A stretch of 32,715 bases of DNA from positions 1 through 32,715 of the IMG/VR virus record IMGVR_UViG_3300033412_000047; one strand, given 5' to 3'. Each line of letters begins with the position of its first letter. The stretch's first letter is position 1. The notes below the pieces were generated by a model. That model had not been told where the DNA came from. It worked only from the letters and a program-made list of their open reading frames with translations, and ran no database searches. This document shows positions 14,189 through 32,715 of this stretch, in pieces. A program made the translations under genes and the position numbers. Source of the stretch: a virus (lineage: Duplodnaviria > Caudoviricetes).

Positions 14189-14998
14189 ATGAAAAACGCA
14201 AACGAATCCGAATTGCCGACGCAGGCACTTCAAAAACGTGATACCGCTGAAATCTCCGCGACAGCTTCACAAATCCTGACCGTCATCGAGCGCGCGGCGT
14301 CCAACAAGGACATTGACGTTGATAAAATGGAACGCCTTTTGCAGATGCAGGAACGCATCTTGGCGAAGGAGGCCGAGTCTGAATTTAACGAGGCCATGCA
14401 AACTGTGCAGGCTGAAATCCCGCGCATCCTTCGGGACGCTACCAATCCGTCAACCAACTCGAAATACACACGGCTCGAAAGCCTGTTGAAAATCGTTGTC
14501 CCAATTTACACGAAGGCTGGTTTCTCGCTTTCCTTCGGCACGGCTGACTGTCCGGTTCAGGGTCATTATCGAATCACTTGCACGGTTTCACATAAAGGCC
14601 GCGCCGGTTCGCACACGCGCCCGTATCAATGCGACATCCCGGCTGACACGATGGGGATGAAAGGCTCTTTGAACAAAACTGCGACTCATGGCTTCGGATC
14701 AACCATGTCTTACGGTCGCCGATATCTGACTTTGCTCATTTTTAACATCGCCCTGATTAATGACGATACTGATTGCGCCGAGCAGAAAAAGTCAACCAGT
14801 GGCCGAGTGGCTACAGAAGCCACTAAAAAATGGATGCTCGAACAACTTTCCGATATTAAGGAAAAAGCGCACGAATTTGCTATAAACAAATCGTGGGTGA
14901 TGCCCGATGAGCCAATTGAATCGTGGCCTTTAACGCACGTTCCAACCAATAAAACTGAAATGGATTTATTGAGAAAACAAATTCTTCAATCAAAATGA
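14189..14998 (+). CDS. erf: ERF-family single-strand annealing protein
   Basis: DVDKMERLLQMQER N-terminus; SKY..LE; GFSLSF; GSTMSYGRRY ERF signature. Confidence 0.88.
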   Translation: MKNANESELPTQALQKRDTAEISATASQILTVIERAASNKDIDVDKMERLLQMQERILAKEAESEFNEAMQTVQAEIPRILRDATNPSTNSKYTRLESLLKIVVPIYTKAGFSLSFGTADCPVQGHYRITCTVSHKGRAGSHTRPYQCDIPADTMGMKGSLNKTATHGFGSTMSYGRRYLTLLIFNIALINDDTDCAEQKKSTSGRVATEATKKWMLEQLSDIKEKAHEFAINKSWVMPDEPIESWPLTHVPTNKTEMDLLRKQILQSK

Positions 14999-15698: not shown

Positions 15699-16682
15699 AT
15701 GTTCCGAAATGCAAAAATCGTCGGCGTCGGCGTAAATCCAGAAAACTATCATGAGCAAAAACATGAGCGTTGTTCGCCGGAGTTTGTCATGTCTTCATCG
15801 AGCGCGCGGCTTTTTCTGGAATGTCCCGAAAGATACAAAAACGGATACACCCCGCCAGATTCAGATGCGATGATTTGGGGTAACTTGCTCGACACGCTGG
15901 TTTTGTTACCGGAGCAGTTTGAGTCGCGTTACGCGGTCAAGCCGTTGACTTACAAAAGTGAAAAAGATGGAGTCAAGCCGTGGAATGGGAATAGCAATGT
16001 TTGCAAACAATGGCTCGAAGACCATAAAGATTTGGTCTGTATCAGTAACGAAGATTATCAAAACGCTTTGACTGCCACTAAACGCCTCATGTCTGACGAA
16101 ACAATCGCTGAATTCATAAATTGCAGCGACAAGCAAGTTCATGTCGTCGGAGAATGGTTTGACAAAAAAACTGGCCTTATAATTCCGGTTCAATGTCTTC
16201 TCGACCTCGTTCCGAAAAACGATTCGCCATTTCGCAAAACGGTCGGCGACTTAAAAACGACCCGCAACGCTGGCGTTCGGCAATTCGGGAGATGGTGCTT
16301 TACTGCCGGGTATCATGTTCAGGCAGCATGGGGGATGGATTTATACATGGCCGCAGTCAATCCAAAGATGGTCGAGGATGGAGAGGAACGGTTGAATTGG
16401 AATTTCATTCTGTCAGAAAATTACCCTCCTTATCAAACCGGACGCCGGACGTTATCCGAAGATTTTATTCAAATCGGTCGGCAGACGTATCAACACGCGC
16501 TGAAAATGTATGCGCTGGCGATGAAAAGTGGGAATTGGCGCGGTTACGACATTCAAGATGAATTCACAATCATCGCGCCAGAGCCGTGGCAAGAGTTTTC
16601 GGCTTTAGAGGATGCGATGGAAAATTCTTACATCGAGCGAGTCGAATCCGGTGAAGAAAATCACGACGTTCCAATGCCCTAA
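15699..16682 (+). CDS. PD-(D/E)XK exonuclease (RecE/ExoVIII, DUF3799-like)
   Basis: YH..MSSS..; CLLD...GDLKTT; GYHVQAA motifs; usual partner of ERF. Confidence 0.82.
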   Translation: MFRNAKIVGVGVNPENYHEQKHERCSPEFVMSSSSARLFLECPERYKNGYTPPDSDAMIWGNLLDTLVLLPEQFESRYAVKPLTYKSEKDGVKPWNGNSNVCKQWLEDHKDLVCISNEDYQNALTATKRLMSDETIAEFINCSDKQVHVVGEWFDKKTGLIIPVQCLLDLVPKNDSPFRKTVGDLKTTRNAGVRQFGRWCFTAGYHVQAAWGMDLYMAAVNPKMVEDGEERLNWNFILSENYPPYQTGRRTLSEDFIQIGRQTYQHALKMYALAMKSGNWRGYDIQDEFTIIAPEPWQEFSALEDAMENSYIERVESGEENHDVPMP

Positions 16683-18677: not shown

Positions 18678-20090
18678 ATGGACTCCGTTTCCGACCAATC
18701 CGCAGCCGCCGATTTAAGGGCGACTCGCCGCCAGCGTTCATCCGGCGCGAGGAACGGTTTGGACCGCTTGCCGCCACATTCGCCGGAGGCCGAGCAAGGC
18801 GTGCTGGGTTGCGCGTTGCTTTCGCCGAACGAATGCATCGGCGAGTGCATCGAGAAATTAAAAGATGGCGGGCAGGAAGTTTTTTACGATTTGCGGCATC
18901 AGACGATTTACGAAACGCTCGCGGAGATGTTCAATTCGCGCGAGCCGGTGGACATCATCACCGTCCAGCAGAAGCTCAAGAACAAGCAATTGCTCGATCA
19001 GATTGGCGGCATCGCGTATCTGTCGCAATTACAGGACGCCGTGCCGAGCGCGGCGAATCTTTCCTATTACCTCGACATCGTCCGCGAAAAATATTTGCTG
19101 CGGAAAATGATTTCGGTCTGCACGGACGTCGTCGGACGCGTTTACGATTACGAAGGTGAAGTGGACGCGCTGTGCGATGAAGTCGAGCGCGACATTTTAG
19201 CGATTGGAAAATCTCGCGTGAGCAACACCGAAACGGGCGTAAAAGAACTTGTCCACGAATCCATCAATCGCATTGAAAAACTGTGGCAACGCAAGGGCGC
19301 GATTTCAGGCATCTCGACGGGAATCCACGACCTCGACAAGAAAACGGACGGCCTGCACGGTGGAGATTTGATTGTGGTAGCTGCTTACCCTTCGGTTGGA
19401 AAGACGAGCCTGTTAATGAATATCGTGGAGAACGTCGTTTTGGATCAAAAACTTCCGGTCGGAATTTTCACCTACGAGATGTCCGGCGTATCGCTTGTGA
19501 CCCGATTTATTTGCTCCCATGCGCGAATCAATCTCCGAAATATCCGTGATGGGATTATTTGTGAAACCGATTTTCCGAAGATAACTCATTCCGCTGGCAG
19601 GATTTCAAATGCACCGATTTATTTTGAACACAACGGCGATTTGAATTTGATGCAACTCCGGGCAAAGGCTCGCCGCTGGAAACAACAATACGGAATCAAA
19701 CTCATTGGCGTTGATTACATCCAAAAAGTGAAGCCGAGCGGATCGAACAAGGGCGATAATCGGGAGCGCGAAGTATCAGCAATATCGGACGGCCTGAAAT
19801 CTTTGGCGATGGAACTTGATTTGCCGGTGATTGCTTTAAGCCAGTTGAATGACGACGGCAAGTTGCGCGAGAGCCGGACAATCGGGCAGGATGCCGATGG
19901 CGTCTGGATGCTCGAACGCGATGACGAAAAAAGCACCGAAGAAGCCGACTTTGTTGACCTGTGGTTACGGAAGCAAAGGAATGAGGAACGCGATGTTTGC
20001 GTGAACCTGACTTTTTTGAAGAAAATCACAAGATTCGAGCAGCGCGAAAACCGAATTATCGCCGACGAAGATGTTCCCAACCACGCATGA
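18678..20090 (+). CDS. dnaB: Replicative DNA helicase (DnaB family)
   Basis: PPHS.EAEQ.VLG N-domain, Walker A AAYPSVGKTS, YEMS, VDYIQ, LSQLN, LRES..IGQDAD, KQRN. Confidence 0.96.
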   Translation: MDSVSDQSAAADLRATRRQRSSGARNGLDRLPPHSPEAEQGVLGCALLSPNECIGECIEKLKDGGQEVFYDLRHQTIYETLAEMFNSREPVDIITVQQKLKNKQLLDQIGGIAYLSQLQDAVPSAANLSYYLDIVREKYLLRKMISVCTDVVGRVYDYEGEVDALCDEVERDILAIGKSRVSNTETGVKELVHESINRIEKLWQRKGAISGISTGIHDLDKKTDGLHGGDLIVVAAYPSVGKTSLLMNIVENVVLDQKLPVGIFTYEMSGVSLVTRFICSHARINLRNIRDGIICETDFPKITHSAGRISNAPIYFEHNGDLNLMQLRAKARRWKQQYGIKLIGVDYIQKVKPSGSNKGDNREREVSAISDGLKSLAMELDLPVIALSQLNDDGKLRESRTIGQDADGVWMLERDDEKSTEEADFVDLWLRKQRNEERDVCVNLTFLKKITRFEQRENRIIADEDVPNHA

Positions 20091-20272
20091 ACGCTATTGA
20101 ATCATTTCGCAAGCTGTATGCGGCCTGTTGCTGGACAGAAAGCCTTGTGACCGAGATGCAAGGCAAAATCAATAATGGAGAATTGATTGATTTGAAAAAG
20201 CTAAACCAGATTCGAGAAAATTTGAACGAGGCCAAACGTGCCGAGCGTGAATTAAGAAAGGCGTTGAAATGA
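20087..20272 (+). CDS. Hypothetical protein
   Basis: ATGA overlaps at both ends. Confidence 0.6.
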   Translation: MNAIESFRKLYAACCWTESLVTEMQGKINNGELIDLKKLNQIRENLNEAKRAERELRKALK

Positions 20273-20445
20273 AATGGATAAAAATAAATCGGAAAAAATT
20301 AGTTAAACGAGGATTTGTGGTCGCTGGTTCTTATCGTGATGGCAAATGGGATACCAGCAGCACGAGTCACGGTGACGGATTTCCAAGATGGGCGGACAGT
20401 GACAGGACGCATTATTGTGTTTTACCAAAACCACCAAAATTATGA
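20269..20445 (+). CDS. DUF551-like small phage protein
   Basis: MKWIKI...THYCVLPKPP pattern; ATGA overlaps at both ends; not in the ORF track. Confidence 0.6.
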   Translation: MKWIKINRKKLVKRGFVVAGSYRDGKWDTSSTSHGDGFPRWADSDRTHYCVLPKPPKL

Positions 20446-20792
20446 TTGCGCCAGACTTATTTGAATCCGCCCACGCACGAAGGATAGACCCGACGACGAG
20501 CCATCAGGCCGCAGCGAGCGTTACCGATTTGACATTAAAACAGCACGACGTTTATGCCATTTTCTTGAAATATAAGCGCGGGGGCAGCGACGGATTAACC
20601 GATGAAGAAATGATTGAGTATTACAACGACGACAGGAACGTATCGGTTCAATCGGAGTCCGGCCTTCGCACTCGACGCAGCGAACTTGTGACCAAAGGCA
20701 AGCTCGTTGACTCTGGCGAACGCCGCAAAACCAAGAGCGGTAGAAATTCGATAGTCTGGAAATTGACAAATGCAGCATTTGCAACCGTATGA
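20442..20792 (+). CDS. Winged-helix DNA-binding phage protein
   Basis: ARRIDPTTSHQAA ... GLTDEE ... RTRRSELV..G.LVDSG..R...SGR..IVW, a common phage family. Confidence 0.75.
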   Translation: MIAPDLFESAHARRIDPTTSHQAAASVTDLTLKQHDVYAIFLKYKRGGSDGLTDEEMIEYYNDDRNVSVQSESGLRTRRSELVTKGKLVDSGERRKTKSGRNSIVWKLTNAAFATV

Positions 20793-20802
20793 AAGGAAAA
20801 TT

Positions 20803-20976
20803 ATGAAACAAACTGACACTGGTTATATCATCAAAAACGGAAAAGTATTTATTTATCCAACTCTTTTCACAACCCGCAGAGAGTGTGTTTTTAGACATTG
20901 CGGACTGACAATAAAACAATTCAAAAAATCATTTACGCACCTCAATGTTGTTAAGGTTCAAATCAAGGAACTGTGA
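20803..20976 (+). CDS. Hypothetical protein
   Basis: AAGGA upstream of ATG 20803; GTGA overlap with the next gene. Confidence 0.55.
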   Translation: MKQTDTGYIIKNGKVFIYPTLFTTRRECVFRHCGLTIKQFKKSFTHLNVVKVQIKEL

Positions 20977-21380
20977 GCAATCCCGGCCTTAAACCATTCC
21001 AATTGAAAAAGCCGTCCAAGAGATTGCCGAAGGCTCGAAAGCCCATCGCCAGAAGCCAGAGGCCGATTCGTAAGCGAACGTCCAAGCGGGCTGCGGAAGA
21101 GGCGCGGTATCGCAAGAGGTCAAAGCAATGGCTGTTTCCTTCCGATGGCGCATTTCGGTTTTGTGAAGGTCATCACGAGAGACTTTTGCCGCCAGTAATC
21201 GCAAATCAGGTTCATCACAAATTTGGCCGCAGGGGTCGTCTGTTAAATTACGAACCGTTTTGGATTGCTGTCTGCAACGATTGCCAAGACTGGATTCACA
21301 ACCGCGAGCCGGATAAAGCGCGTGAACTTGGATTGCTCTGCCCGAAGGGTCAATACAACAACCAATCACTCGCAAAATAG
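20973..21380 (+). CDS. HNH-like nuclease (Ref/Nin-type)
   Basis: Basic N-terminus, FCE..QVHHKFGR...AVCNDCQDWIH..P..A.ELGLL. Confidence 0.7.
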   Translation: MSNPGLKPFQLKKPSKRLPKARKPIARSQRPIRKRTSKRAAEEARYRKRSKQWLFPSDGAFRFCEGHHERLLPPVIANQVHHKFGRRGRLLNYEPFWIAVCNDCQDWIHNREPDKARELGLLCPKGQYNNQSLAK

Positions 21381-21382
21381 CC

Positions 21383-21847
21383 ATGCCAACCTTACCCATA
21401 AACCCGTCAGAGAGCTTTCGCAGGAGAAATCCAACCCTCTATCCATCGTCGCAGGGCGTTAAAACCTCGCCTAACCCCCAAAGCGATCGAAATTCGGCGG
21501 CTTTAAGCAATGTTGAGATTACAACCAACTTCCTGTGCCATCCAACAACTGACGAATTGAAGCTCAACAAAACAGAGCGGGCTTTTCTGAAATACCTTGA
21601 ACTTCTAAACTTTCCGTGGATCGGTGTGCAAAACATCAGCCTTAAAATCGGCAACGACTGCCGCTATGTCTGCGATTTTTGGGCTATCGGATTTGACGGC
21701 GAACTTATCGGTTACGAAACGAAAGGATTTTACAGACCACAGGCGAAAGTAAAAATGGCTGTTGTCGCCCGATTATTTCCGTGGATAAAATTCAAACTCG
21801 TCCGCAAGATTAAAAACGGATGGGATATACAGGATGTGAAGCCTTGA
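21383..21847 (+). CDS. DUF1064-like PD-(D/E)XK nuclease (possible junction resolvase)
   Basis: NKTERAF...RYVCDF...YETKGF...KVK..A..FPW. Confidence 0.7.
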   Translation: MPTLPINPSESFRRRNPTLYPSSQGVKTSPNPQSDRNSAALSNVEITTNFLCHPTTDELKLNKTERAFLKYLELLNFPWIGVQNISLKIGNDCRYVCDFWAIGFDGELIGYETKGFYRPQAKVKMAVVARLFPWIKFKLVRKIKNGWDIQDVKP

Positions 21848-21848
21848 T

Positions 21849-22007
21849 ATGAACGCTGAACCACAATCAAAATCAGTCAAGCCCGCTCAAAGGACGCGAA
21901 TTTTCGGAGGTTCGATTTTTCGAGAGGGTGACACCGAGACGATTCGCGGGATTTCATTTGTTGTGACACATTTTACGAAACGCGGAGTGATTTTGAGGCC
22001 GGTTAAA
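21849..22007 (+). CDS. 5' part of a small phage gene split by the cassette array (3' part at 23817-23840); now fused in frame to cassette A ORF
   Basis: Joining 22007 to 23817 gives ...VILRPVK-QQPEERR* with TGA 23838-23840 overlapping ATG 23837. Confidence 0.7.
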
Positions 22008-22110
22008 CGACGGAACTCATGCACCGGCGACCAAAAACCTATGAACACACCAGACTTTACCGAACAACCCAAAGCGCCAACGGCGGTTGCGTGCAGTGAT
22101 TTTGTTCGGC
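22002..22110 (-). repeat. attC-like site A
   Basis: Minus strand: R'' GCCGAAC, 6 nt, L'' ACTGCACG ... L' CATGAGT, 6 nt, R' GTTTAAC. Confidence 0.75.
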
Positions 22111-22379
22111 GTCCCCTGTGTGACCGAATCAGGGCTGCTTGGAAACCGCGAATCGGATACCACGAACTGATGAACGCTGTGTTCCCATACGCAGAATACC
22201 CGCTGGCATGGCGATACTCACACAACGGAGGCCCGCCAGTGTGCGCTATGGCATTTGGGAAGGCGCTCCGAAAGCTGGGGCTGATGCGATACGACAACAT
22301 AATCTCAGGCACGCCGAATGACGAGCTATGCAACGTGGCGTCAAAAACAAACCAACAACCGAAAGACCAAAAACCATGA
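22041..22379 (+). CDS. Cassette A hypothetical protein
   Basis: ATG inside the attC A loop after an A/C-rich leader; stop overlaps ATG 22376. Confidence 0.7.
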   Translation: MNTPDFTEQPKAPTAVACSDFVRRPLCDRIRAAWKPRIGYHELMNAVFPYAEYPLAWRYSHNGGPPVCAMAFGKALRKLGLMRYDNIISGTPNDELCNVASKTNQQPKDQKP

Positions 22380-22442
22380 GTAAATCAACAGCATCCGAAA
22401 CGAAAGGGGCAAGCCACGTTGCGCATCAGCGACTGGTTAGAG
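22313..22442 (-). repeat. attC-like site B (R' core reads ATT instead of GTT)
   Basis: Minus strand: CTCTAAC cagtc GCTGATGC gcAACGTGGC ... GCCACGTT GCATAGC tcgtc ATTCGGC. Confidence 0.8.
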
Positions 22443-22726
22443 CAAAAAACGACAATAGTCTAATCACGCCAAAGGAACGTGCCGACCGGATAATTCAGGA
22501 CATCCTCGTGAACCATCTGCCGCGAATCGTAGAAGGGCTACACGCTGGATATGTGGATGAGAATCAAATCCTCGTGATGTATGACCATGCCGTGCGCGCT
22601 CGGCTGCTAACCGAACATAAAAGCTCCGAATATGTCGAGGCCATCCAAGCACAAATCGCCAGAATAATCGCTGGCGGCTCAAAAAATGGAAAACTCATCC
22701 GCGAGCAACTGCGCCACTTGCTCTAA
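22376..22726 (+). CDS. Cassette B hypothetical protein
   Basis: MSKSTASETK...; ATG inside the attC B loop; TAA stop lies within CTCTAAC of site C. Confidence 0.7.
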   Translation: MSKSTASETKGASHVAHQRLVRAKNDNSLITPKERADRIIQDILVNHLPRIVEGLHAGYVDENQILVMYDHAVRARLLTEHKSSEYVEAIQAQIARIIAGGSKNGKLIREQLRHLL

Positions 22727-22829
22727 CGACAAGCCGAGCTAACCGCCGCGAACTATCCACGAGCATGAAATCGAAACGCACTACCAAACTGAAAGCGCCC
22801 CGGCGGTTAGCTCCGGCGCATGGTTCTGA
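22721..22829 (-). repeat. attC-like site C
   Basis: Minus strand: TCAGAAC catgc GCCGGAGC TAACCGCCG ... CGGCGGTTA GCTCGGC ttgtc GTTAGAG. Confidence 0.88.
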
Positions 22830-23130
22830 TGCGGTCGTCCTTCGACTACTCGACGACAACCGGCGCATGACGCGGGAACTGCTCGCATACCGGAAGGCGA
22901 AGCGAATCAATGCCGCCCGCCTGCTGCTCTGCAAACTTCGGGCACATATCGAGCCGCACTACAAAGCCGAGCATGGTATCCCGCTCAAATACGATACAGG
23001 CTGGGCGTGGGAGATGGCTGCTTTCATCGAAAACCACTTCCAGAAAATCACCGTGAAACAGATGCGCGAGCATCAGAACGGCACAGCTATGCGGCAACTG
23101 AACGAGAAGGGCAAATATGAACTGCACTAA
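22765..23130 (+). CDS. Cassette C hypothetical protein
   Basis: ATG inside the attC C loop; reads on into the loop of site D. Confidence 0.7.
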   Translation: MKSKRTTKLKAPRRLAPAHGSDAVVLRLLDDNRRMTRELLAYRKAKRINAARLLLCKLRAHIEPHYKAEHGIPLKYDTGWAWEMAAFIENHFQKITVKQMREHQNGTAMRQLNEKGKYELH

Positions 23131-23245
23131 ATGCGGATTACCAATAACACCGGAACACGAAGAGCACGGCAACACGGGCTATCACATAATTTGCCCTTCT
23201 CGTGAAGGGTCGCGCAGCGATGTCCGCATCAGCGACGGGTTAGGC
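23073..23245 (-). repeat. attC-like site D (long, 173 nt)
   Basis: Minus strand: GCCTAAC ccgtc GCTGATGC GGACA ... TGCC GCATAGC tgtgcc GTTCTGA. Confidence 0.8.
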
Positions 23246-23551
23246 GGGAGCGCGAGCGACCGACAACCCGGCGCTGTAGCTGTGCCGTTAGGCGTGAGGA
23301 AAAGCGATCCTGCCGCCGAAGGTGAATTGCAGAGGCGTGTGGAATGGGCTGAACCAGTCTTTGAAGCATTTGTGGCAGAGGTAGCGGCAAAGAAATGGAG
23401 CAATGCTCTAAACCACATCGAGCCACTAATCCGCGAACTCAAACTCTGTGAGCATGATTGCCGCTACCTCGTCGAAGAACGGCGGCGGCTGGCGCTGGCC
23501 AGTGCAACGGCCAGCGAGCGGCTCACGCCTAACGAGAAAGTCCAGCGATGA
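23117..23551 (+). CDS. Cassette D hypothetical protein
   Basis: ATG inside the attC D loop; N-terminal CxxC..H..C; ATGA overlap with 23548. Confidence 0.7.
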   Translation: MNCTKCGLPITPEHEEHGNTGYHIICPSREGSRSDVRISDGLGGSASDRQPGAVAVPLGVRKSDPAAEGELQRRVEWAEPVFEAFVAEVAAKKWSNALNHIEPLIRELKLCEHDCRYLVEERRRLALASATASERLTPNEKVQR

Positions 23552-23657
23552 GCGACTGCAACCACACAACTCTCGAAAGCTGTCTGCGCGCCGATGAGTG
23601 CGCCCAGTGTCTCCGCGAAAGAGCGCCAAGCTCATTCGCTGCGACGGCGGGTTCTCT
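23527..23657 (-). repeat. attC-like site E
   Basis: Minus strand: AGAGAAC ccgcc GTCGCAGC GAATGAGC ... GCTCATC GCTGGAC tttctc GTTAGGC. Confidence 0.85.
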
Positions 23658-23850
23658 GGCGTCAATTCCTCACAAGTGCCCCAAATGCGACGGGCAGGGA
23701 ATCGTCAGCAAGCCGCCGTGGGTGGCAGGGGATGTCCACCAATGGAGCAGCACTGAAACAACATTCCAGTGTGATGTCTGCCACGGCTCAAAAATCATCT
23801 GGAGCAAGCCAGAGAACAACAACCAGAGGAGCGGCGATGAATTGGGATAG
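23548..23850 (+). CDS. Cassette E protein with DnaJ-type zinc finger motifs
   Basis: CPKCDGQG ... CDVCHGS; ATG inside attC E. Confidence 0.7.
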   Translation: MSDCNHTTLESCLRADECAQCLRERAPSSFAATAGSLASIPHKCPKCDGQGIVSKPPWVAGDVHQWSSTETTFQCDVCHGSKIIWSKPENNNQRSGDELG

Positions 23851-24037
23851 ATTCTCCGAAGAACGCGACGACATCGGCTACCTCGACCGACGAGCAGAAC
23901 GCGCACAAGAATTAGCCGACGTTCGCCAATAGCAGGCGCGAGACGATAAAGTTTTGTTCGGCAAAAATCATCGGATGGAAAGTCATGCCGCTGATTTGAA
24001 AGCGGCTCAAGAATTGGATGAACGAAATAAGAAATGA
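23837..24037 (+). pseudogene. Small gene with an internal TAG
   Basis: MNWDRFSEERDDIGYLDRRAERAQELADVRQ*QARDDKVLFG...ELDERNKK*; TAG at 23930-23932; the read-through frame ends in an ATGA overlap at 24034-24037. Confidence 0.55.
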
Positions 24038-24223
24038 AAATTTACTCCGGCATATTGGGTTGGCGTAGTGAGTGCGCCTGTGGGCGGCAGGCCGGAGTCT
24101 TACCGCAGTTGCCGCTCACACCTTCTGAGGCGAAGTCGGGACAGTTCGCTATTCATCTCACACTGTTCAAGTCCCTCACGTTCAATCCACCTGTTGTTGT
24201 GCGTGAGGGGCGATTTTGATTTT

Positions 24224-24928
24224 ATGCGGGAACTGATTTACAGCAACGATTTGATAGGCCAACGTCCGGTTGGAATAACGGATGGCCTTATCCGGCTTGT
24301 TGAAGATTCAACTGGCCGATGCGACGAAATTATCAAGGCGCATCATTACAGCCATAAGACAACCAAAAACAGATTTCTTTCGATGCTGGTGAATGAGGGA
24401 CTTGGAGCTATCCAGCTTGGTTACGGTATTAGGCCGAAAATGAAGCACACAATTTCGGAAGATATTTGTGAAGGAAATTTTTGTGAGTTTGACCGGATGT
24501 GGTTGAGCGATGAATTACCAAAATTCAGCGAAAGCCGGACGATTGGTTTGCTGTTGAGCTATATCAAGCGCGTTCATTCACGGATAAAATTCATCATCAC
24601 TTACGCCGACGAAAGCGCGGGAAACAAGGGAACGATTTACAAGGCGACAAACGCGATTCAGCTTAAATCTTTGGATTGCGATTTTTATGTCTTGCCTTCG
24701 GGCGAAAGAATCCATCCTGTTTCCATGTATCATCGGCATAAGACTCGTTCAAAAGCGTTCGTTCAAAAGCAGTATCCGGGCATCAAGCATATCAAGGGCG
24801 AGTTCAAACAATTCCGATTCCTGTATATTTTGGACAATAAATTGCGGAGGAAGTTTCAAGGCAGAAACGCTGGCGTTCCACGTCAGAGGGATGAGTTCAA
24901 TTCTCATACTCCGCCCCAATTAACATGA
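24224..24928 (+). CDS. mom: Mom-family adenine modification enzyme (GNAT fold)
   Basis: HHYS; QLGYG; EFDRMWLSDELPKFSES..I; IKFIITYADES.G..GTIYKATN; KQFRFLY. Start likelier at ATG 24224 than 24068. Confidence 0.85.
   Translation: MRELIYSNDLIGQRPVGITDGLIRLVEDSTGRCDEIIKAHHYSHKTTKNRFLSMLVNEGLGAIQLGYGIRPKMKHTISEDICEGNFCEFDRMWLSDELPKFSESRTIGLLLSYIKRVHSRIKFIITYADESAGNKGTIYKATNAIQLKSLDCDFYVLPSGERIHPVSMYHRHKTRSKAFVQKQYPGIKHIKGEFKQFRFLYILDNKLRRKFQGRNAGVPRQRDEFNSHTPPQLT
24844..24918 (+). tRNA. Atypical tRNA-Gly(UCC)-like RNA overlapping the mom 3' end
   Basis: GCGGAGG AA GTTT CAAGGCAG AAAC G CTGGC GTTCCAC GTCAG AGGG ATGAG TTCAATT CTCAT ACTCCGC C CCA: full cloverleaf, TCC anticodon, encoded CCA. Confidence 0.85.
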
Positions 24929-25281
24929 CCCGCTCCTTTACAGACCGAGAGCGCGAGCTATTAAAAGCCATGTCACTATTGCCACAGCCATTTACGACCA
25001 GAGATGTTATCGCCGTCGCTGCCGTCCGTTCGTCGGTTCAACATTTCATGGCCGTATTCACCAAACTGAAATTCATCAAACCTGATGGCCTACGATTGAA
25101 ACATAACCAGCCGCAGACCTATTGCCGGACAGATAAATTTCCCGACATGACAGACGAGCCGGTTGCAGAAAAAGAGCCTGCGCCAATCCTCAAGCGAACA
25201 CCCATAGAGGAGGCTTACTGGCAGATGCGTGACAGTTTCAATATCAAGACGAGGGCTGACGATCCGACTATTTATGAGTGA
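24925..25281 (+). CDS. Hypothetical protein (possible winged helix)
   Basis: 118 aa; overlaps both neighbours. Confidence 0.6.
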   Translation: MTRSFTDRERELLKAMSLLPQPFTTRDVIAVAAVRSSVQHFMAVFTKLKFIKPDGLRLKHNQPQTYCRTDKFPDMTDEPVAEKEPAPILKRTPIEEAYWQMRDSFNIKTRADDPTIYE

Positions 25282-25453
25282 GAATTTCAACCAAATCAAA
25301 AAGTGTCCCTGTGGCAAGATGGAATTGCACAAGGCCGATGAATCTCCAATTTGGAAGATGCCGCCGATGTGCTTCAATCCCAGACCGGAGGTTGAAATCA
25401 TTCCGGCAACTTGTCCCGAATGTTCAGCAAATCAAGTGGTGGTGACGGCATGA
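25274..25453 (+). CDS. Small Zn-ribbon protein
   Basis: KKCPCGKMELHKADE...VEIIPATCPEC; ATGA overlap with 25450. Confidence 0.6.
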   Translation: MSENFNQIKKCPCGKMELHKADESPIWKMPPMCFNPRPEVEIIPATCPECSANQVVVTA

Positions 25454-25830
25454 AGTCTATCGGCCAGCTTTCGCCATGCAAATACGCCGAAGTTTTCGGG
25501 ACAGGATATTCCGAATTTAAATCACCGCATGGCATTGACGGTCTGGTAAAAATAACCGGAACTCAAGTTGATTTGTTGTCCGTCATCGCCACGAAAGAGG
25601 GCAGCGGATATTTCAGGAGTTTTATCATCGCATTAAAATCCGAGGCGAATGTCATCAACGTCTGGGCGATTCACAATGACCGGCTGGCAGATGTTCTCAC
25701 CAGATACGGGTTTGTTCCAGTGCGAGATATTTTCTGGGTGAAGGACAGGAACGAGTGGCTTGATGGAATGCAGTGGGTTAATCCAGAACAAACAGCGGAT
25801 GACCAGTTAATCCGAGCAGGAAATTTATGA
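25450..25830 (+). CDS. GNAT-like protein
   Basis: LLSVIATKEGSGYFRSFI (motif A-like) ... NDRLADVLTRYGF (motif B-like). Confidence 0.55.
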   Translation: MKSIGQLSPCKYAEVFGTGYSEFKSPHGIDGLVKITGTQVDLLSVIATKEGSGYFRSFIIALKSEANVINVWAIHNDRLADVLTRYGFVPVRDIFWVKDRNEWLDGMQWVNPEQTADDQLIRAGNL

Positions 25831-28244: not shown

Positions 28245-29183
28245 ATGAAAGAACAACCCGACAACGACGAAATCAACCTGACCAAGCTGGCGCAGGACTA
28301 TTCAGACAACGACAAGGCGCGTGAGTTGCTCGAATCAATACGCTGGCCGAAAGGCATCATTTGCCCTCATTGCAATTGTTCGGGTCATTACGTATTAAAG
28401 CCAAGAGCCACAAGCAAAGTTCCGGCGCGTAAAGGGCTATACAAATGTAAAACGTGCTGGCGTCAATTCACTGTCACTGTCGGGACAGTCATGGAAGATA
28501 GCAAAATCCCGCTTGGCAAATGGCTCATGGCGTTCTTTATTCTTGGTTCAAGCAAAAAGGCCATTTCATCCCATCAACTTCACAGAATGTTAGGTGTGAC
28601 GTATAAAACGGCTTGGTTCATGTCCCATCGCATCAGACACGCGATGAAACCGCACCAAAGGCTCTTACAAGGCGTCGTAGAAGTGGATGAGACGTTCTTT
28701 GGCAAGAAGTCGGACGTTCGCACGTCTAAAAGCTCTAAATCATGCGTAGCCGCTCTTGTGGAACGCGGTGGAGAAGTCAGGACAAGAGTCGTTGCCAGTG
28801 TCACCCAAAAGAATATGGGCGCGTGTATTCGTGAGCTTGTGTCAAAGGACGCTATCATCAACACCGATAACCATTCAGCGTATGCCAATCTTGCCGATTA
28901 CAAAGGCCATGACGTTGTGAGCCATTCAACCGAAGGCTTCAACAAAATCACACTCGAAGGCCGCAGGGCATCCGTCAATTACTGCGAATCGTTCTTTTCC
29001 CTGATGAAACGCGGAATAGTCGGAGCATTTCATCATGTTTCCAAAGAGCATCTGCCTAGATATTGCGATGAGTTCGCGTTCAGGTGGAACACAAGGAAAC
29101 ATACGGACGGCGAACGATTTGAAGTGGCTATCGCCGCGATTGAAGGCAAGCGGCTCAAATATAACGACGCGATAGCGCGTTAA
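28245..29183 (+). mobile_element. IS1595-family (ISXO2-like) DDE transposase
   Basis: RWP.G..CPHC..YKCKTC..QFTVTVGT Zn ribbon; HTH with YKTAWFM.HRIR; VEVDETF, TD...Y, N..ESFFSLMKRG..G.FHHVS.EHL.RY..EF.FRWN. Confidence 0.95.
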
Positions 29184-32129: not shown

Positions 32130-32715
32130 ATGTGCCAATTCAAATCTGGAATCGTATTGAAATCTGCTAAAGAAAAAGGCGGCTTTCGCTTAATCATGTC
32201 GCCGTGGACAGAATCACACAGCGAACTAATCACCATGTTCAAACTCAATGACGGCAAGATGCTCCATTTTGCTCGCGTTGAATTTTCACCGCCGAATTTA
32301 GACACGGCATGGCAACCGGACACCTACAAGTTGAAAATTGACGAGGACAGGACGCCGGAATGGTTCGACGCTGAAATGAAAGAGAATGTTGCCGACAAGA
32401 TGCGGGATTATATCAAATCCATCATCGTTTCCGGCGATGTTCAGCTTTTGATTGGAGGACAATTTGTAATCGCTCCCAATGCTAAAATTGAATGCGCTCA
32501 CACAATGGTCATAAATGCTATGTGTGGCGGCACGGTCAATTACATCAGGGGCGGCACGGTCAATGACATCAGGGGCGGCACGGTCAATTACATCAGGGGC
32601 GGCACGGTCAATGACATCAGGGGCGGCACGGTCAATGACATCAGGGGCGGCACGGTCAATTACATCAGGGGCGGCACGGTCAATGACATCAGGGGCGGCA
32701 CGGTCAATTACATCA
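32130..32715 (+). CDS. Phage protein with octapeptide (beta-helix-like) repeats; runs off the right window edge
   Basis: MCQFKSGIVLK..SHSEL..ARVEFSPP..DEDRTPEWF then (GGTVN[Y/D]IR)n; not in the ORF track. Confidence 0.8.
   Translation, partial: MCQFKSGIVLKSAKEKGGFRLIMSPWTESHSELITMFKLNDGKMLHFARVEFSPPNLDTAWQPDTYKLKIDEDRTPEWFDAEMKENVADKMRDYIKSIIVSGDVQLLIGGQFVIAPNAKIECAHTMVINAMCGGTVNYIRGGTVNDIRGGTVNYIRGGTVNDIRGGTVNDIRGGTVNYIRGGTVNDIRGGTVNYI
32526..32715 (+). repeat. 24-bp coding tandem repeat, 7 full copies plus 1 partial
   Basis: GGCGGCACGGTCAAT(T/G)ACATCAGG; unit order Y,D,Y,D,D,Y,D,Y. Confidence 0.97.

Follow-up and report, generated by a model that had tools for sequence, protein, structure and literature searches.

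Inverted attC cassettes in a phage replication operon: an integrase-less array whose genes are predicted to start inside their own recombination sites

Can a gene cassette function when its gene runs against its own recombination site? Integron cassettes canonically consist of a promoterless gene ahead of its attC and are read from Pc. The question is raised by a 32,715-nt stretch of phage DNA (the window), for which five plus-strand ORFs had been predicted to lie on attC sites of minus polarity. The window corresponds to positions 22861-55519 of a 55.5-kb IMG/VR record (G001) that carries direct terminal repeats and is rated complete, and its DNA is present in full in three soil metagenomes, which may be its source.

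Sites were called with a detector of the bottom-strand form of attC (a hairpin bounded by AAC...GTT, with spacers of 5-6 nt and a C bulge in its 3' arm), which was later widened to take bacterial sites with 7-nt spacers. Within 1.65 kb (22006-23653) it called five sites, all on plus and none also on minus: attC A (22006-22106), B (22317-22438), C (22725-22825), D (23077-23241) and E (23531-23653). A plus call means that plus is the attC bottom strand and minus the top strand, so that the predicted opposition of plus-strand ORFs and minus attC polarity was borne out. Each cassette body carries complementary R boxes at both ends (9, 10, 10, 8 or 12, and 10 nt in the order A to E), with the GTT and AAC triplets of R'' and R' in every cassette apart from the R' box of site B, which reads AAT on plus instead of AAC; the relative L332 has AAC there and the change is a synonymous one of Asn. 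An attC also has an unpaired spacer and L boxes in which one arm bears extrahelical bases. In 5/5 sites the C bulge lies 8-9 nt from the GTT on the 3' arm of plus, and linked site pairs numbered four on plus, none on minus and none in each of 12 shuffled windows. Folding against shuffles was done for sites A, B, C and E, among which C alone, the best-folding site, did better (z -2.4); site D, 165 nt long and with a 15-bp inner stem in its long loop, was folded without a shuffle control. Next to site D there is a second right arm with an R box (23242..23298, the arm at 23277-23298), 48 nt (16 codons) past the first. This arm is complementary over 13 nt to the left arm of D and its R box over 12 nt to the cassette end, and P0042, a relative of ORF4, begins at about the same place; it is likely a remnant of an older attC of cassette D. 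The right arm of site A is 85% like a Verrucomicrobiae attC over 34 nt, and site B is 76% like a phage attC in locus L147 that is attached to another gene. The detector did not call a further candidate hairpin, which would have been the sixth (21854-22009, 72% complementary), and it was rejected.

The polarity of the sites is fixed by four agreeing lines, namely bulge position, array topology, integrase position and a control with the published array TJE1. Bulges on one arm of an attC mark its bottom strand, according to the accessible part of Nivina et al. (2016, PMC5027507). With regard to topology, the last cassette body ends in an unpaired R box of minus polarity (23808-23817) with no hairpin beyond it and no integrase after it, which puts the attI position at the right end of the array. 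The flank beyond this box lacks the TATT/CATT run typical after several related attI sites and, by eye, is unlike those sites. An IntI motif was found in 17 related loci, 14 of which were kept after dropping three that overlapped, and in 14/14 the gene lies on the called bottom strand just past the array end, as in canonical integrons; five of the 14 are viral (two share one protein). On the viral contigs L136, L145, L147, L159 and L161 an IntI-like gene directly follows the array and is co-directional with the cassette genes. The TIGR02249 cut-off was passed by L147, L159 and L161, with L145 just under it. Finally, the strand of TJE1 attC1 cloned as bottom by Qi et al. (2023) maps to minus and the genes lie on plus, and our detector calls the two sites neighbouring attC1 bottom on minus, matching the published strand. 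Hence the TJE1 array is canonical and the window array is not.

All five ORFs start within an attC, as predicted, 35, 59, 40, 40 and 17 nt inside their sites, and the five attC-encoded peptides quoted in the prediction are all present. ORF1 (22041..22379, 112 aa; cassette A, 22008-22318) encodes a small phage protein whose tail comes from attC B, and ORF2 (22376..22726, 116 aa) occupies cassette B (22319-22726). The tails of ORF3 (22765..23130, 121 aa; cassette C, 22727-23078) and ORF4 (23117..23551, 144 aa; cassette D, 23079-23532) come from attC D and attC E, respectively, while ORF5 (23548..23850, 100 aa; cassette E, 23533-23816) belongs to a common phage family with a zinc-ribbon-like CxxC...CxxC pattern. 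Four ORFs do pass their own cassette end, ORFs 1, 3 and 4 stopping in the next attC and ORF5 in the non-attC flank; ORF2 stops at a TAA inside its R' box. The sequence confirms the predicted ATGA overlaps in site B (22376-22379) and site E (23548-23551) and holds a third, latent one in site A (22041-22044), where the latent stop at 22042 overlaps ATG 22041. Measured in the crossover frame, the offsets are thus ATGA at A, B and E, a 14-nt overlap of the ORF3 stop and the ORF4 start at D, and a 25-nt gap at C (stop 22740, ATG 22765). Sites A and B share an A-rich run before the ATGA (22028-22044 and 22364-22379), with no obvious Shine-Dalgarno sequence; it is possibly a common initiation signal. 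The starts are predicted ones: a further in-frame ATG precedes that of ORF2, at 22328, and ATG 22041 is in frame with an upstream plus-strand ORF (21849..22379), which enters site A one base off the crossover frame and so continues into ORF1 as a possible 176-aa fusion. The array likely inserted into this upstream ORF, the first 53 residues of which have no relative in viral contigs outside the window phage. The sequence collection has ORF1 solely in the 176-aa form, an example, in our reading, of how gene callers misplace the starts of inverted cassette genes. Self-promoted inverted cassettes of the toxin-antitoxin type carry their own promoter and a start inside the cassette body. Unlike these, the window ORFs open from inside the attC, and a weak scan of 22041-23850 found no sigma-70-like site.

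A CALIN comprises two or more attC sites on one strand, under 4 kb apart and with no intI nearby, as stated in the available part of PMC4889954. The window has five sites on one strand in 1.65 kb, and no tyrosine recombinase was found in G001 with the PF00589 profile or by tblastn with two IntI proteins and one phage integrase. An intI adjoining the array, which a complete integron has together with an attI site and a Pc promoter, is present in the phage loci L147, L159 and L161 and absent from the window phage. Canonical cassette genes lie on the top strand and end no later than their own attC, whereas 5/5 window ORFs lie on the bottom strand and start inside an attC. By these sequence tests the window array is a real CALIN and is neither a complete integron nor a set of canonical cassettes.

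It would be an ordinary captured CALIN if the polarity had been misread or if the minus-strand ORFs were the real genes. The bulged base is a C on the top strand of textbook attC sites and here it is a C on plus, and minus-strand ORFs do overlap cassettes 1, 3 and 4. However, a C bulge is the norm of this site family, found in 219/235 cases in IntI-anchored bacterial arrays, and the minus ORF 21887..22333 over cassette 1, named in the original prediction as one that would refute it if shown to be real, has four stops in its frame in the relative L333, whereas all five plus-strand ORFs have relatives. In the plus frame, ORF1 and L333 differ by 29 synonymous and 6 replacement codons. The second minus ORF at issue, 23182..23442, had no Pfam or PHROG match. 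This reading is thus largely refuted and we regard it as very improbable.

To place the window among related arrays, two-arm patterns were used, which returned 28 and 19 viral loci as well as 168 bacterial loci from 12/64 parts of the genome collection, many of the latter from Verrucomicrobiota; the first 80 of the 168 were analysed. Viral contigs were also scanned with a one-arm 16-mer. Of the 110 loci obtained, mostly chance hits, L015, L063 and L087 were used outside the window phage; L064 and L070 were dropped after inspection, and L085, L090 and L093, with a matching cassette end and no detected hairpin, were left out. Leaving out the window phage, 34/49 viral loci yielded 100 cassettes and 55/80 bacterial loci yielded 235; selection was by the attC patterns of a single family, and the loci have ancestry in common. 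A bottom-strand ORF spans at least 90% of the body in 81/100 viral cassettes, against 19/235 bacterial ones, where the top-strand ORF is the longer in 191 and the bottom-strand ORF in 43; as open antisense frames are common (a top-strand ORF of this extent in 19/100 viral cassettes), such ORF counts overstate slightly. Of the 81 viral inverted genes, 77 start inside an attC. Furthermore, PHROG matches were obtained for 24/96 bottom ORFs of viral cassettes, mostly to DNA methyltransferases, and for 0/75 top ORFs, and Pfam likewise matched 0/75 of the same top ORFs. The inverted class is therefore typical of phages, as had been proposed. The site family itself is not phage-specific and also occurs in sedentary integrons on the chromosomes of Verrucomicrobiota, in Limisphaerales and their relatives; these integrons share the C bulge, a similar right arm and the IntI geometry. 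These differ from the window in that their genes lie mostly on the top strand (191/235) and stop at or before their own attC (145/157). Cassette lengths show no frame bias in bacteria (81/80/74) versus 25/29/46 in phages. The original prediction had asked whether the same cassettes occur in bacterial integrons; none of the five window bodies was found in the bacterial loci searched, a partial sample. One bacterial-labelled locus, L162, sits on a 4.9-kb contig, possibly of a prophage, and its methyltransferase cassette next to IntI is genuinely inverted; several other exceptions, which lie within long arrays on chromosomes, resemble shadows of genes on the top strand. In the Verrucomicrobiae arrays L163 (~15721), L220 (~8579 and ~9042) and L225 (~6689), all long chromosomal ones, a plausible top gene is accompanied by a fully open bottom frame that begins at an ATG within an attC; these double-open cassettes are either shadows or cases in which the host has reused sites of phage type.

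The predicted crossover itself lies within the coding sequence. Of the 81 genes in inverted position, 62 run through the terminal AAC and always read it as Asn; another 13 end on the TAA of TAAC and 6 immediately before it. All 62 exits are in frame 0 and none in the other frames, the +1 frame being open in 72/100 and never used. When each site is read on in the frame of its own AAC, the earliest stop forms an ATGA with the start codon of that site in 40/77 sites; the two remaining frames give 4 and 6, and permutation gave a mean of 3.8 and a maximum of 11 in 2000. The remaining 37/77 lack an exact ATGA, and the crossover-frame stop is at most 20 nt from the ATG in 72/77. Clustering to 97 bodies left 60 frame-0 exits and 40 ATGA. 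The reading frame at a cassette's own R'' box is a partly circular measure and was not relied on. Since the exit frame is fixed and the stop is built into the site, a new neighbour gives a gene a new tail (median 9 aa) whose stop should usually be near the next start. The predicted effect of reordering on protein tails was supported by relatives, whose tails vary with the neighbour: the eight closest relatives of ORF1 share a common core up to the Asn and then diverge, and those of ORF5 likewise diverge right after it. The accompanying claim that reordering changes coupling was not supported, as the fixed exit frame and in-site stop predict that coupling is mostly kept; the realised junctions are ATGA in 17/33, within 20 nt in 28/33 and over 20 nt apart in 5/33, and two of the four internal junctions of the window are ATGA.

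On sequence comparison, then, the geometry and polarity of the array, its coding strand, the fixed exit frame, the stop-start overlap and the variable tails are established. The interpretation that we favour, and consider probable, is that of a five-cassette, integrase-less array with its genes on the attC bottom strand, each starting in its own attC and four of the five reading the crossover as an in-frame Asn, and in which every attC likely serves as a stop-and-restart joint of an operon. The fixed frame and the overlaps could instead be unselected by-products of making cassettes from operon genes, and the array a frozen relic. The Asn frame also occurs in canonical read-through genes (8/12 bacterial ones, and orf1 and orf2 of TJE1), so part of the bias may stem from cassette formation; the AAT at site B, the weak folding and the lack of an integrase are signs of decay, and ex-cassettes without attC arms exist (L333, L337). 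Against this, read-through is the rule in phage cassettes (62/81) and rare in bacterial ones (12/157), the ATGA excess within the attC falls in the frame of the incoming, foreign gene, and the diverged attC sites that window cassette A and L332 carry on the same body both retain the ATGA. We therefore think a by-product origin unlikely. It is a point against an active array that the 55.5-kb record has neither an integrase nor a recognisable attI and that 1/4 tested sites folds above shuffles; the array may be partly frozen, and some sites look decayed. In TJE1 (L376, 77-1467), orf1 and orf2 continue past an R box into their own attC, with its AAC read as Asn, and orf3 ends on the box TAA.

Bodies and sites also occur in different combinations. 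The protein P0046, known from protein alone, is identical to ORF3 over 86 residues, from residue 20 (the GTT codon of R'') to 105 (the Asn of R'), and differs at both ends; a second ORF3 relative, P0044, is 52% identical. The body of cassette A recurs at 98.6% in L332 with a much diverged attC, still with ATGA in the crossover frame, and the L127 and L132 bodies are 94% alike up to the AAC and 68% in the attC. In standard bottom-strand excision the attC leaves together with its gene, and P0046, L332 and the L127/L132 pair therefore need another step. As the body ends are complementary, excision at two R'' boxes is conceivable; it would yield a circle of body plus next attC, and ordinary reinsertion would then fix the swap. 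Alternatively, units might be swapped by phage single-strand annealing, with the attC arms as short homologies and a minor part for integrase. The window encodes ERF and exonuclease VIII and no integrase, the bodies change their own attC, unlike in standard excision, and other phages have contigs that agree over part of a loop before switching arm. Yet every body keeps its complementary R-box pair, the bulge bases are kept, the breakpoints fall on the AAC and GTT triplets, and related phage arrays end in an IntI gene, and we judge annealing improbable as the main route. At ~870-1174 of L332, a 5-nt duplication before R' causes a frameshift (ORF of 188 aa), and a non-IntI tyrosine recombinase lies nearby.

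Some relatives of the cargo lack an attC or part of one. Of the 12 relatives of ORF1, L333 lacks 36 nt covering the right arm and keeps the R' codons, and is most simply an ex-cassette. The ORF2 relative L335 is a plain, attC-free gene with 77% identity over residues 33-84, and the ESM Atlas gave no usable match for ORF2. ORF4 has the relatives P0041 and P0042; scans of viral contigs with ORF3 and ORF4 found the window phage only. For the ORF5 family, 39 loci were returned and 33 examined (six near-duplicates were skipped), and in none of these 33 other loci does a called, linked attC lie ahead of the gene, L337 being a decayed cassette by eye. Two cargo genes thus also exist as plain phage genes. 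A tentative extension of the joint interpretation, which we hold to be possible rather than likely, is that ordinary phage genes are provided with attC sites and that bodies (GTT to AAC) and attC sites (stop, restart and N-terminus) are shuffled separately through both R boxes, so that a phage cassette factory would generate combinatorial N- and C-termini with the operon still coupled.

The array sits within a plus-strand replication operon comprising genes for ERF (14189-14998), exonuclease VIII (15699-16682), DnaB (18678-20090) and a resolvase-like protein, followed by a Mom-like gene. DnaB is of host type and, among five genomes tested, closest to two of Verrucomicrobiae (62% and 53-79% identity, against 37-45% for the three others), and we therefore infer a Limisphaerales-like host. 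The order DnaB then array is also seen in L015. Promoter-like sites were found only upstream of the array on plus (8 versus 4.8 ± 2.0 in shuffles, a weak sign), and a weak scan of 20000-25500 found none on minus; Rfam had no match in 21500-24500. A single plus-strand transcript of the replication operon would read through the array, and ribosomes would stop and restart inside each attC by translational coupling. An integron integrase of the Verrucomicrobiota host or of a related phage may insert and excise cassettes, adding them on the right of the array, which is transcribed last and is the side on which related phages have a co-directional intI; the cargo may be taken from ordinary phage early genes. 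An excised or reordered form of the array was not seen in the contigs of four runs, contigs being prone to drop rare forms, nor was a relative with an empty site found in viral contigs. When the two flanks are joined in silico, the stop of the upstream ORF overlaps ATG 23837, which occurs by chance in about one case in three and was not counted as evidence. This ATG opens a short, uncalled plus-strand ORF of 31 aa (23837-23932), with GGAG just upstream, that overlaps the end of ORF5.

Phage attC arrays as such are already known; the inverted, frame-locked layout was not found in the literature searched, from which subscription journals mostly fell outside. The accessible text of Qi et al. (2023, PMC9892861) describes integrase-less attC arrays in phages, rich in methyltransferase cargo like the related arrays here and with sites that recombine with IntI1; antisense genes or starts inside an attC are not described in that text, whereas in the window the coding strand is the bottom strand. 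The portions available of PMC4889954, PMC8618304, PMC11389934 and bioRxiv 10.1101/2022.09.11.507474 hold nothing on an inverted layout. In class 1 integrons, ORF-11 of attI1 and short attC ORFs are translationally coupled to the next gene (PMC8876359, in part); there a short top-strand leader helps a canonical gene, whereas in the window the cassette gene itself starts in the attC, on the bottom strand, with the crossover inside its coding sequence. In the sections of Nivina et al. (2016, PMC5027507) at hand, top-strand attC recombination is of low frequency and the opposite orientation is treated as silencing, with expression from Pc; in the window, by contrast, gene and attC are mutually inverted within the cassette, so that a correctly inserted gene faces attI and intI. 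Turning the gene round and placing the crossover in the coding sequence suits a phage operon and would leave such genes silent from Pc in a host integron, and the layout likely permits genes to be reshuffled without breaking operon translation. The array also has a bearing on the origin of cassettes: the same genes are found free among ordinary phage genes, packaged in cassettes, joined to a different attC and left behind in ex-cassettes. DNA methyltransferases abound in the cargo of related arrays, and the system may therefore amount to a counter-defence library for phages. Directly past the window array lies a DNA modification gene of the Mom family (24068-24928, PF25680). Further right, the window of this integrase-less phage holds an IS1595/ISXO2-like transposase gene (28245-29183), and it ends in a tandem repeat with a period of ~24 nt (32526-32715), its last bases extending beyond the end of G001.
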